Below, piece after piece: positions 44,184 through 53,100 of a stretch of 64,000 nucleotides of DNA; the stretch's first letter is position 1, and each line of letters opens with the position of its first letter. Source of the DNA: Eledone cirrhosa. Its lineage: Eukaryota. The notes beneath the pieces were generated by a model. It had not been told where the DNA came from, ran no database searches, and saw nothing but the letters and a program-made list of their open reading frames with translations. The stretch spans positions 33,294,001-33,358,000 of the forward strand of contig OZ024742.1 in the NCBI GenBank assembly GCA_964016885.1, read 5' to 3'. Made by a program: the position numbers and the translations under genes.

Positions 44184-44485
44184 TTTTCTCTTTCTCTTAA
44201 TTTCGAGTATATTTTTTTGACCGGCCACCTTCCTGGTGGCAAGGTTGTAAAAGAAAAGAAATTGTCATCCCTTGAATCGCAAGAATGTTTTGCATATTTT
44301 GAAGGTGCCAGCTATCGCAGCCATTTGTAGACTATGAATTAGGGAGCTGCGCTTTTTGTCCACAAATCCAAGTTCAGTCATACTTTGGTCCAAGCGGGTT
44401 GGTATATAACCCGTAGCTCCAATAATGATGGGTATGAAGCTAAAGGTGTATCTTGGATACTGGATTTGTAAACTCCTCATCAATG
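44184..44485 (-). mobile_element. R4/Dong-like RLE retrotransposon 3' end, copy A (~300 bp)
   Basis: PIIIGATGYIP...KICKTFLRFKG* + 3' UTR. Confidence 0.82.
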
Positions 44486-44793
44486 TATGTATGTATGTAT
44501 GTATGTATGCATGTATGTATGTATGTATGTATCTATGTATGTATCTATGTATGTATGTATCTATGTATGTATGTATGTATGTATCTATGTATGTATATAT
44601 GTATGTATGTATCTATGTATGTATCTATGTATGTATGTATGTATGTATGTATGTATGTATGTATGTATGTATGTATGTATCTATGTATGTGTCTATGTAT
44701 GTATGTATGTATCTATGTATGTGTCTATGTATGTATGTATGTATGTATGTATGTGTCTATGTATGTATGTATGTATGTATGTATCTATGTATG

Positions 44794-44827
<34 letters not shown>

Positions 44828-45045
44828 TGTATGCATGTATGTATGTATGTATGTATCTATGTATGTATGTATGTATGTATGTATGTATGTATGTATCTAT
44901 GTATGTATCTATGTATCTATCTATGTATGTATCTATGTATGTATCTATGTATGTATCTATGTATGTATCTATGTATGTATGTATCTATCTATGTATGTGT
45001 CTATGTATGTATGTATGTATGTATGTATGTATGTATCTATGTATC
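44486..45045. repeat. (TATG/TATC)n microsatellite
   Basis: Direct inspection. Confidence 0.97.
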
Positions 45046-48000
45046 CTGCATGGTCAACCTTGACAGAACTCATAGACAGGGACCCGGTTACTGGAAGCTC
45101 AACTTGTCCTTACCGGCAAGTAAGGCTTACAGGAACCGGATTAGCACTTTAGTTAAGGAGCGGTTGACGGGCGCCATCGTCAACAGCAGGTGGTGGGGAT
45201 CTCTCAAAAGAGAGATTAGAGTAGTCTCTATAGAATTTAGTAAGGAGTTAGCCTCAAATAGAAATAGGAAGGAAAGGGAGTTGGTAGATAGTGTAGAAGA
45301 GGCAATTAGAAGCGGCGACGTGGCCAGAGTGCTAGCGTCGAGAACGGCCCTGGGCCAGTTCTTCGACGCGAAACACGAAGGCTGCATCGTCCGAAGCAAA
45401 ATACGTGCTCTGGGAAACGAGGGGACCAAAGCTGTTAGCTGGGCCCGCGTGACAGAAGCCAAAAGAGGGAGCAGATCCACTATCCGGTCTTTGCGAGACC
45501 AGGATGGACGGGTGATCCTTGAACCTAAGCAGATGTGCGAGGCTTTTCAAAAGCACTTTGCCGGATTGTTCGGAAGGGGCGGGGGGCCGGTTGGGGACGT
45601 GGACTTCGGTCCATACCTCGACGGCCTGCCGCGTCTCTCGGACAGGGAGGCGAAGTCCTGCGAGGAGCCGATTTCAGCCGCTGAGATAGAGGACGTGCTG
45701 AGCCAATGCGGCAAATGCAAATCCCCGGGTCTCGATGGTCTTCCATACGAACTATATCTAGCTATGCCGGACTTGTTCCCCGAACTCCTCGAGGCGGTCT
45801 ACTGCAACTGGCAACAGAACGGGAGAATTCCCTGTGCTGTGACCAAGGGCGTAGTCACGCTAGTGAGGAAGGACGAGAACAAGGGGGACGATATAAATAA
45901 TTTCAGGCCCATAACTCTGCTAAATACAGAGTTACAGATTTTGGCCAAGGTGCTAGCAAAGAGGTTGGCGCTTGTCGTGGGCAACCTGGTGGGAGATGCG
46001 CAGACATGTGCTATCCCGTCCAGGTCCATCCACGATAACCTCCACCTCATGCGATACATCATAGAGAGGGTTGGGAACGAACCCGGCTTTGGTGGGGCCC
46101 TGATCAACTTGGATCAATCTAAGGCATTCGATAGGGTCGACCATGGTTACCTGGATGCGGTGCTAGCGGCGGCAGGCTTCGGACCCGTTTTCAGGGGCTG
46201 GATCAATGCCATGCACAGCAGCCGCATCTGCTCTAGGGTCAAGGTGAACGGCTACCTCTCGGAGCCGTTCGAAATCGCGCGGTCCATCCGACAGGGGTGC
46301 CCTCTCTCCTCCCTTCTGTATGTAATGACTCTAGAGCCACTGCTGCGGAAGTTGGAGTTGTTGCAGGGCATCCCGTTGGAACCGGGATTGCGGAAAGCTG
46401 TGTCAGCCTACGCTGATGACGTAACAGTAATGGTGTCGACGGCCTCGGAAATCAGGGCGATCGGCACCTTACTGGAGGAGTACGAAAGGTTTACAGGGGC
46501 TAAGCTGAACCGGAACAAATCGATTGGTCTGCAACTCGGCACGTGGAGGGGCAGATCGATGCCCTCCGATAGCGTCGTCGGGCGCTGGACGGAGGGCCCG
46601 GTGAAGTTGCTCGGGGTCTGGTTCGGACCAGACCTCCAGGTGGAGAAGAACTGGGGTGAGGTGACGAACAGGGTATTTGCACTGACCCAGAAGTGGGCCG
46701 AGTGCAAACTGTCCCTGAAAGGACGGGCGGAGGTGGCGAACACTTATATAGCGTCCGTCATCTACTACCGCCTGACCGTGGTGCCTTGCCCAAGGGAAAC
46801 GCTCGCCAAAATGGAGCGCGCACTCTTCCAATTCCTTTGGAAGAAGCGGGCTCCTATGGTGAGGAGATCCATCTGCTGTCAACACCCTTCGAAAGGAGGG
46901 CTGGGGATGCCGTGGCTAATGATACGTAAACACGCATTAAGGCTACGGCACCTTCAGGTATTCCTCTCCGGTCAACCGGTGTGGGCCCCGTTTGTAAGGC
47001 AAGCCTTTCCCCAGACTTGTCTCACTCACCGAGCTGCAATCCTGGGTCAAGCAAAGACCGAGAAAACTGGGCGCCTGGCACACCGAGTGTGCCCAGGCAC
47101 TCACGGCTCTCTGGCAGGCGGACCCGGCTGTCAGTGGAGAATCCACCTCGTCATTCTATAGAGGGCTGGTGGTTAGCAGGTGCGACGACGCCCTCGGAGA
47201 AGCCCTAGGCATGGAGGAAGACGAACTGGCCAACCTGTTCGGTAGGACATTCAGCCCGGGACCCATGGATAACTTCCAGAGGTCCCTGGCCTGGCAATGC
47301 TACAGAAGGGCTCTGCCCGTTCGAGAAAGGCTCTACAGACACGGGCGCCCGGGTAGGGACCCATCGAAAAAGATCTGTCCCAGATGCGTGTGCGACGAGG
47401 AAACCGTTGCACACGCATTGGTACACTGCTCGGGCATTGCCGATCTGTGGGGTTATGTCGAACAACTGCTGTCAAGGGTGGGACCAATCCGGTTGACCAC
47501 CGAGTCTATTGTAACGATCAAGCCGCCTCCCCTCTTCAAAAACGAAGGAGAGGCGGTGTTTCTGTGCGTAATAGCCATGGCGAAAGAGGTTGTATGGTGG
47601 ACGCGTCTGAAAGGACTGAGGTCAGACACCTTTCTCTCTGGCCAACAACTGGTCCGTTTCTTCCGATATCATTTCGGAAGAAGGATCAGGATGGAGAGGG
47701 AGGTGCTGCACCCCAGCCGTTTCTATGAAAGATGGGTGAAAGTGGCGAGAATGGCCCGTGTGAATGGGCCTTCACTCTACATCAGACTATAGGTGAGGAA
47801 GATGAAAGACCAAGGGAGCACCCCTTCTCTGTGCTCCTGAGGAGAAGGGTTGCACACTTTTTTCGGGGGTGTGTGCGACCCCCCAAGGCGCCTCCTCTCT
47901 ATTGAGGACTTTGTTATAAATTTTATTTTTTGTTATATTTTATTTTATTTTTATATATTGTTATTGCCTCCTCCTTATTGAGGACGCCTTGTTTTCTAAA

Positions 48001-52268: not shown

Positions 52269-52338
52269 TTTATCTATATATCTCTGTATGTATCTACATA
52301 TATATCTATGTATGTATCTATGTATGTATGTATCTATG

Positions 52339-52675
52339 TTTTCTCTTTCTCTTAATTTCGAGTATATTTTTTTGACCGGCCACCTTCCTGGTGGCAAGGT
52401 TGTAAAAGAAAAGAAATTGTCATCCCTTGAATCGCAAGAATGTTTTGCATATTTTGAAGGTGCCAGCTATCGCAGCCATTTGTAGACTATGAATTAGGGA
52501 GCTGCGCTTTTTGTCCGCAAATCCAAGTTCTGTCATACTTTGGTCCAAGCGGGTTGGTATATAACCCGTAGCACCAATAATGATGGGTATGAAGCTAAAG
52601 GTGTATCTTGGATACTGGATTTGTAAGCTCCTCATCAATGGTTCGTAGATGTCCTCCTTCTCCTGTATTTTTCTG
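52339..52675 (-). mobile_element. R4/Dong-like 3' end, copy C (~340 bp)
   Basis: Near-identical to copies A and B, same 3' junction. Confidence 0.85.
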
Positions 52676-53038
52676 TATGTATCTATGTATGTATGTATGT
52701 ATCTATGTATGTATATATGTATCTCTGTATGTATCTATGTATGTTTCTCTGTATGTATATATGTATCTATGTATGTATGTATCTATGTATATATGTATCT
52801 CTGTATGTTTCTCTGTATGTATCTATGTATGTTTCTCTGTATGTATCTCTGTATGTATCTATGTATGTATCTATGTATCTCTGTATTATGTATCTGTGTA
52901 TGTATCTATGTATCTATATATGTATTTATGTATATATCTCTGTATGTATCTATGTATGTATCTATGTATGCATCTCTGTATGTATCTATCTATGTATGCA
53001 TTTATGTATGTATTTATGTATGCATCTATGTATCTATG
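52676..53038. repeat. (TATG/TATC/TCTG)n microsatellite (continues 53101-53213)
   Basis: Direct inspection. Confidence 0.95.
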
Positions 53039-53100
53039 TTTTCTCTTTCTCTTAATTTCGAGTATATTTTTTTGACCGGCCACCTTCCTGGTGGCAAGGT
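53039..53100 (-). mobile_element. R4/Dong-like 3' end, copy D (62 bp, 3' UTR only)
   Basis: ttttctctttctcttaatttcgag...ggtggcaaggt, same 3' junction. Confidence 0.85.

Follow-up and report, generated by a model that had tools for sequence, protein, structure and literature searches.

Four truncated R4/Dong-type LINE copies in a CATA microsatellite array, likely inserted separately at one constant position within the repeat

Introduction

The R4/Dong clade of long interspersed nuclear elements (LINEs) carrying a restriction-like endonuclease (RLE) includes Dong of Bombyx mori, DongAg, DongBg and the Dong element of D. stevensoni (PMC5678591 supplement; PMC7998251), and the published Dong targets are (TAA)n microsatellites (PMC7998251; PMC3812793). 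In R2, the 3' untranslated region (UTR) is bound by a reverse transcriptase (RT) extension, and in R2Bm an upstream motif of the target is important and the distal bases downstream are not (PMC10499050). Target specificity is a known trait of three groups, among them Tx1 (PMC4640811). The present study concerns a 64,000-base stretch of genomic DNA (contig OZ024742.1, positions 33,294,001 to 33,358,000, forward strand; hereafter the window), in which the 3' ends of four copies (A-D) of an R4/Dong-type LINE lie within or at the edge of a compound microsatellite, probably as separate insertions for which the predicted endonuclease would have cut at a fixed point of the CATA unit.

Dong-R4 elements are abundant in coleoids (PMC8967140), and R4-Dong, Hero and CRE are nearly cephalopod-specific among molluscs (PMC10294476). 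Octopus vulgaris harbours 51 Dong-R4 families over 92.7 Mb, five of which, accounting for 1,129 insertions, have been active recently, together with 13 recently active L1-Tx1 families (PMC13282606); for Dong of O. bimaculoides, no evidence of recent activity was reported (PMC9115989). An octopus is the probable host of the window, judging from SINE motifs and from the mix of RTE, Dong, Tx1 and CRE-like relics; if so, the family described here is probably one of those already catalogued.

Results

All four copies lie on the minus strand: copy A (44184..44485, 302 bp), the 5'-truncated end of an R4/Dong-type LINE, which borders the array on the left; copy B (48644..49338, 695 bp), encoding a CCHC knuckle and the RLE; copy C (52339..52675, 337 bp), also 5'-truncated; and copy D (53039..53100, 62 bp), whose 5' end is the first base of a conserved hairpin. 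On this strand each copy ends in AGAGAAAA followed directly by CAT, within the array or at its edge, so that orientation and 3' register are common to 4/4 copies, the 5' breaks falling at four different points. The bases after CAT are AGATA in copies B, C and D and GCAGG in copy A, which is flanked by non-array sequence on its 3' side (CATGCAGG) and by (CATA)n on its 5' side. An earlier sequence-only reading had described this common 3' end, with AGATA in B, C and D, and it was found again when all four copies were re-read, as were the lengths of 302, 337 and 62 bp; its 696 bp for copy B was corrected to 695 bp, since other copies of the family carry a different base after 49338.

The array itself is an unstranded compound (TATG)n/(TATC)n microsatellite (44486..53213) in six blocks (44486-45044, 48058-48643, 49339-49627, 52271-52338, 52676-53038 and 53101-53213). 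The placement of the copies in it is not a matter of chance, because the blocks make up only 1,978 of 64,000 bases, TATGTATGTATG falls inside the array in 100 of its 101 occurrences, and blastn revealed no further copy of the family elsewhere in the window, which also contains no comparable second array. Between copies C and D, TATG-TTTC-TCTG units at 52741, 52805 and 52829 resemble 7-nt element tips; the TTTCTCTG units at 52741-52838 were nevertheless rejected as 7-nt element insertions, one substitution from the common TATCTCTG unit being sufficient to produce them.

The copies differ from one another by 0-2% (A-B 3/302, A-C 4/302, B-C 7/337), copy D being identical to every other copy over its 62 bp; the few-base differences noted by the sequence-only reading thus amount to 0-7 sites. 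They include EEED in copy B versus EKED in copy C, a true difference in which the T at 48964 (EKED) is the majority base in 4/4 sequencing runs compared. Copy B encodes a 203-aa protein (P0001) with a stop at 48725-48727, bears three private substitutions (48808, 48964 and 49141) and lacks three bases present in other copies of the family after 49009, which form the conserved Glu codon of the PD..E motif; as judged from this missing codon, copy B is itself defective. The base at 48808 was dismissed as evidence of polymorphism, since it was absent from four runs but contigs drop rare variants.

Several lines of evidence support the assignment of copies A-D to the 3' ends of an R4/Dong-clade RLE LINE, a membership that rests on motifs and anatomy. 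P0001 contains the C-x2-C..H..C knuckle and the HNRPD of the RLE, and matches 15 longer proteins at 46-57% identity, five of which are full-length RT+RLE open reading frames (ORFs) of 1,136-1,162 aa; the Glu missing in copy B occurs in other copies of the family and in relatives. As the window copies contain no RT, its comparison relied on the relatives, whose RT motifs fit B. mori Dong and not HERO (by-eye comparison with the alignment in the PMC5678591 supplement). The relatives have a single long ORF (1,133-1,174 aa from the first Met) with no apurinic/apyrimidinic endonuclease (APE) domain, and a C2H2 motif is absent in 6/6 full-length relatives checked. A three-helix unit is confidently predicted at residues 22-73, and neither Pfam nor a sequence search of the PDB matched this N-terminal domain to Myb. 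The nearest solved structures in sequence are R2 proteins, and the low-confidence predicted fold of one relative, P0005 (mean predicted local distance difference test score 54.5), matches R2, with a C-terminus matching PD-(D/E)xK nucleases. The precise 3' junction at a microsatellite occurs in 4/4 window copies, and 12/20 related loci adjoin microsatellites. The R4/Dong identity, RLE, precise junction and site specificity proposed from the letters of the window thus find support in the proteins of the relatives, the junction register and a CATA-flanked clade. Relatives above 80% identity were absent from a search of 1.8 billion proteins, the exact 3'-end pattern had 0 matches in metagenome and viral contigs, and scans of genome and viral contigs yielded 0 related loci. 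Rfam gave 0 families in the window, and for five related loci only sub-threshold matches, on repeats.

The 20 related loci, all from metagenome contigs, are flanked by (CATA)n in three cases and by (CTTA)n in nine, the remaining eight having no flanking repeat within the contig. The (CATA)n has the same orientation as at the window copies in 3/3 CATA loci. Two of these, L001 and L002, are full-length elements 51% identical to each other; each is bordered by (CATA)n at either end and has all catalytic motifs, the open ORFs comprising 1,133 and 1,161 aa. The 3' junction of L001 and L016 reads GAA/CATA. A 12-row tree, built without L005 (a twin of L004) and without the eight unflanked loci, joins the window family to the three CATA loci in a single clade (100/99), and in a 37-row tree they fall within a clade of 16 without any CTTA locus (100/98). 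The CATA loci have about 50% protein identity to the window family. Junctions from other genomes came from 24 of 622 loose-end rows, and among the rows listed the 3' flanks are TATG-like in 29 contigs of run X6 and three rows of X5. AGATA was rejected as a required motif, because the listed junctions show plain (CATA)n after 2-4 terminal A; its occurrence downstream of CAT is, on these junctions, a local feature and no family rule (3/3 array-internal copies versus 81/310 local sites, P=0.018, post hoc). Taken together, the flanks and trees make it likely that this R4/Dong branch cuts the CATA repeat specifically. Recognition of the upstream side, as in R2Bm, is suggested by copy A, which has the array upstream and only CAT downstream.

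Further observations were made on the related loci. The (CTTA)n-flanked loci (L004, L005, L006, L007, L008, L009, L012, L013 and L014) represent several deep R4/Dong lineages not found in the literature searched, and one of them, L008, has (TAA)n on the 5' side and (CTTA)n on the 3' side. In L006 (330-480), an L013-type 3' end is followed by (CTTA)n and then by a different full-length element, a head-to-tail stacking in one array like that in the window. L001 (116-150) and L002 (88-140) have in common a 5'-UTR motif, AGGACGTGTGGATTA, directly after a GCGC-rich start, which is possibly a promoter or ribozyme remnant.

At the 5' junctions, microhomology with the repeat amounts to 3 nt (A), 1 nt (B), 2 nt (C) and 2 nt (D). 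The 2-3 nt claimed by the sequence-only reading therefore apply to A, C and D, the value for B following from the true continuation of the element in other genomes. A random break yields at least 2 nt in 17% of cases, and a sum of at least 8 over four junctions has P=0.026-0.031 under random breaks, which lends weak support to the suggested microhomology priming of the second strand; microhomology-mediated deletion would give the same pattern. Target-site duplications were discarded as evidence, the 14-nt flank match of copy C being within chance (P=0.18) and matches reaching at most 4 nt in copies B and D and at most 3 nt in copy A.

A 26-nt hairpin is predicted in the 3' UTR of copy B (48680..48705, minus strand), 36 nt from the element end, consisting of 3 bp, a 2x1 internal loop, 6 bp and a 5-nt loop; identical hairpins occur on the same strand in the other three copies (44220-44245, 52375-52400 and 53075-53100). 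In the window and the three CATA loci, where the alignment used sequence alone, its distance from the 3' end is 35-37 nt; in L004, L005, L007 and L008 its position is somewhat more upstream. Across six distinct rows, 98% of cells are paired and 6/9 pairs show changes on both sides, a score reached by 0/500 shuffles (slid controls 21-44%), and the 3' UTR has z=-3.3. The hairpin model recovers the four window copies and 7/20 loci. By analogy with R2, a role as the RT docking site is inferred; the start of copy D at the first hairpin base is a single case. A different hairpin with a 7-bp stem, seen by eye and missed by the model, lies near the 3' end in the 3' UTR of L006 (331-360), L013 and L014, its TTGTT loop being common also to L002, L004 and L016.

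Two Tx1-like LINEs of 2.6-3.0 kb on the plus strand, absent from the sequence-only reading, are interleaved with copies A-D. T1 (45047..48057, 5' boundary approximate) is a 5'-truncated element of the L1 group with RT and zf-RVT domains, which matches Xenopus Tx1 ORF2 at 1.6e-75, contains one frame change near 47006 and is followed at its 3' end by ATATCTATG. T2 (49628..52270), followed by TATCTATA, is more decayed, with six out-of-frame gaps relative to the open frames of T1. The two are 83% identical (2,135 of 2,567 columns) with a third-position bias (141/69/48). An APE domain is found in 45% relatives but has been truncated away in T1 and T2 themselves. Both copies are 5'-truncated and sit in a repeat, in which a target-site duplication would not stand out from chance. 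The occurrence of CCTGCATG both left of copy A and at the 5' end of T1 was rejected as a duplication, the second instance lying where the Tx1 coding homology begins. Among nine T1-family 3' flanks listed from other genomes (from 22 of 80 loose-end rows), five are TATC-like, one TATG-like, one CTAG-like and two non-repeat. These flanks make it likely that the Tx1-like family uses the TATC units of the compound array, read on the other strand; as one strand of the array presents CATA and the opposite strand TATC, the Dong-type and Tx1-like copies would come to lie in opposite orientations.

The stretch compared was found, under six organism labels, in 20/24 listed runs, of which nine contain at least half of its words; runs X17-X20, with a small word share, were not used. 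Fitting contigs numbered 4,331, 38, 84 and 10,466 in the four runs compared, many of them at 90-95% identity. Copies A, B and C differ from the majority sequence at 2/302, 4/695 and 5/337 sites (about 0.6-1.5%), and by this measure the window copies are young. The family as a whole is, by the same kind of comparison, high-copy, long-lived and of mixed age, since thousands of contigs at 90-99% identity occur across the runs compared and X6 contains a distinct subfamily with many near-fixed differences. The youth claimed for the family in the sequence-only reading therefore applies to the copies; the family is large, and its target is common to relatives at about 50% identity. The near-identical sequence under at least six organism labels might come from closely related organisms, from DNA of the diet or the environment, or from horizontal transfer.

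Other features of the window include the decayed RLE tail of another early-branching LINE (43721..44092, plus strand, two stops), which adjoins the array and which, by its motifs, may be CRE-like. A perfect run of 75 G at 43492-43566 is possibly an assembly or sequencing artefact. ORF fragments of a reverse transcriptase occur on both strands at 103-2694 and are, by their motifs, presumably RTE-like. An 11-copy, 112-bp tandem repeat (99%) lies at 32221-33460, and a 40-bp satellite occurs twice, inverted and about 5 kb apart, at 35704-36295 and 41338-41851.

Discussion

The interpretation that we favour, and hold with reasonable confidence, is that copies A-D are R4/Dong-type 3' ends, likely inserted separately into a CATA microsatellite by a predicted endonuclease cutting at a fixed point of the unit. 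The full-length protein, of about 1,150 aa in relatives, would comprise a small N-terminal helical domain, RT, CCHC knuckle and RLE, bind its own RNA via the conserved 3' hairpin and attach to the (CATA)n that lies upstream of the site. It would then nick the TATG strand after ATG, and the RNA would be copied from its short A-run through target-primed reverse transcription (TPRT). Copying would stop early at varying points, giving the 5' truncations, and the cDNA end would be joined to the repeat, in some cases via homology of 1-3 nt, and no long duplication of the target would arise. As each insertion would leave usable repeat on both sides, copies could accumulate in one orientation.

Independence of the four insertions is the preferred reading, since A/B and C/D are kept apart by an older, decayed Tx1-like element; T1 and T2 being only 83% identical, with a third-position bias and a decayed T2 between the two pairs, a recent tandem doubling of a unit containing them is excluded. 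Alternatively, a family with the same CATA target could have inserted only two or three times, A/C or C/D being products of gene conversion or of unequal exchange inside the array, with a later microhomology-mediated deletion at the 5' end. The sequence-only reading had named shared private mutations as a sign of such duplication, and A and C do share a T at 48755, a minority base that fits either a common source subfamily or an early local duplication. This allele occurs, however, in multi-copy contigs of two other genomes (8,507 of 499,312 summed depth in two contigs of X1; 24,777 of 210,492 in 39 contigs of X6), though in neither X5 nor X4, and A-C (4/302) are no closer than A-B (3/302). 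Copy D, 363 bp from copy C, has no diagnostic site, and the junctions of B, C and D all carry TATCTATG (P=0.018), as copying of a junction would also produce. Microhomology of 1-3 nt is also typical of deletions, and is here weak and unspecific to TPRT. The non-array 3' flank of copy A speaks, like the Tx1-like elements, against local copying, and we regard this alternative as unlikely. The recent independent TPRT events proposed from the sequence are thus favoured by the T1/T2 divergence and made less certain, for single pairs, by the A-C minority base and copy D.

A different view is that the elements made the repeats, the RT adding or carrying (CATA)n or (TATC)n tails, and that later copies accumulated passively in neutral junk. 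RTE LINEs of octopus are known to carry microsatellite tails (PMC9115989), and the X5 majority contig of the T1 family, which matches 48004-48062 without difference, includes ATATC past the apparent end of the element. Repeats are, however, found on both sides of 5'-truncated as well as full-length copies, copy A has no tail but only CAT, register and orientation are fixed in 4/4 window copies and 3/3 CATA loci, and the tail type follows the protein tree; such an origin appears very improbable. Beyond the shared base, copy D and the two junction features discussed above, a few points also weigh against separate, targeted insertion. No empty allele and no full-length copy of the exact window family were seen, a real junction logo was not obtainable from 24 of 622 and 22 of 80 rows, and two of the nine T1-family rows continue into non-repeat DNA. 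For the hairpin, pairing was a condition of the scan that selected the rows, which makes the covariation test lenient and its result inflated, and the model found no instance independent of its training set.

A broader proposal, to which we give somewhat less than an even chance, is that an undescribed deep R4/Dong branch has kept (CATA)n across about 50% divergence, its sisters using (CTTA)n and classical Dong (TAA)n; that the hairpin is the RNA docking tag of the clade, with copy D as the minimal tag; and that, together with a TATC-specific Tx1, two endonuclease classes, unrelated to each other, divide the compound tetranucleotide arrays by unit and strand. If so, a switch of target by one base would be open to direct test with the intact natural proteins of L001, L002 and L007. 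In its essentials the finding is ordinary, as microsatellite-targeting R4/Dong elements and active octopus Dong-R4 families were already known. It may add three things. The first is a natural series of closely comparable RLE proteins with intact ORFs, whose targets are set apart by a single base (CATA and CTTA) or, in the case of TAA, by one unit length; the series bears on how specificity changes in RLE retrotransposons that have no zinc finger at the N-terminus. The second is a short RNA element, supported by covariation, in a clade for which the PDB copy searched contained no solved structure. The third is an account of how the abundant tetranucleotide arrays of repeat-rich genomes could serve two classes of LINE as landing sites. 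While the clade itself is known, the target, the RNA element and the co-targeting pattern (an R4/Dong specific for CATA or CTTA, a Tx1 specific for TATC, and this hairpin) were not found in the literature searched, Repbase, Dfam and most subscription papers lying outside that search.

Among described systems, the available passages on the O. vulgaris Dong-R4 families give no target sequence or 3' structure (PMC13282606). Waldo of the R1 clade (WaldoAg1/2, WaldoFs1) targets ACAY microsatellites, including ACAT and hence (CATA)n (PMC3812793), but has an APE-type endonuclease and belongs to an unrelated clade; a shared target would be convergence. Kibi and Koshi of the Tx1 clade resemble T1 and T2 as microsatellite-targeting APE-RT-zf LINEs, although their published targets are TC and TTC (PMC3812793), in contrast to the TATC-like flanks of the T1 family. 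R2 (R2Bm, R2Tg) provides the closest solved proteins and has TPRT and upstream-motif recognition as common traits (PMC10499050), while differing in its 28S ribosomal DNA target and in an N-terminal C2H2 finger, which was found in none of the full-length relatives checked. With Dong, the relatives share a single RT+RLE ORF, the lack of an N-terminal zinc finger, a microsatellite target and, as compared by eye, the RT motifs; the difference lies in the repeat, which is (TAA)n for the TAA-specific Dong families and (CATA)n here.

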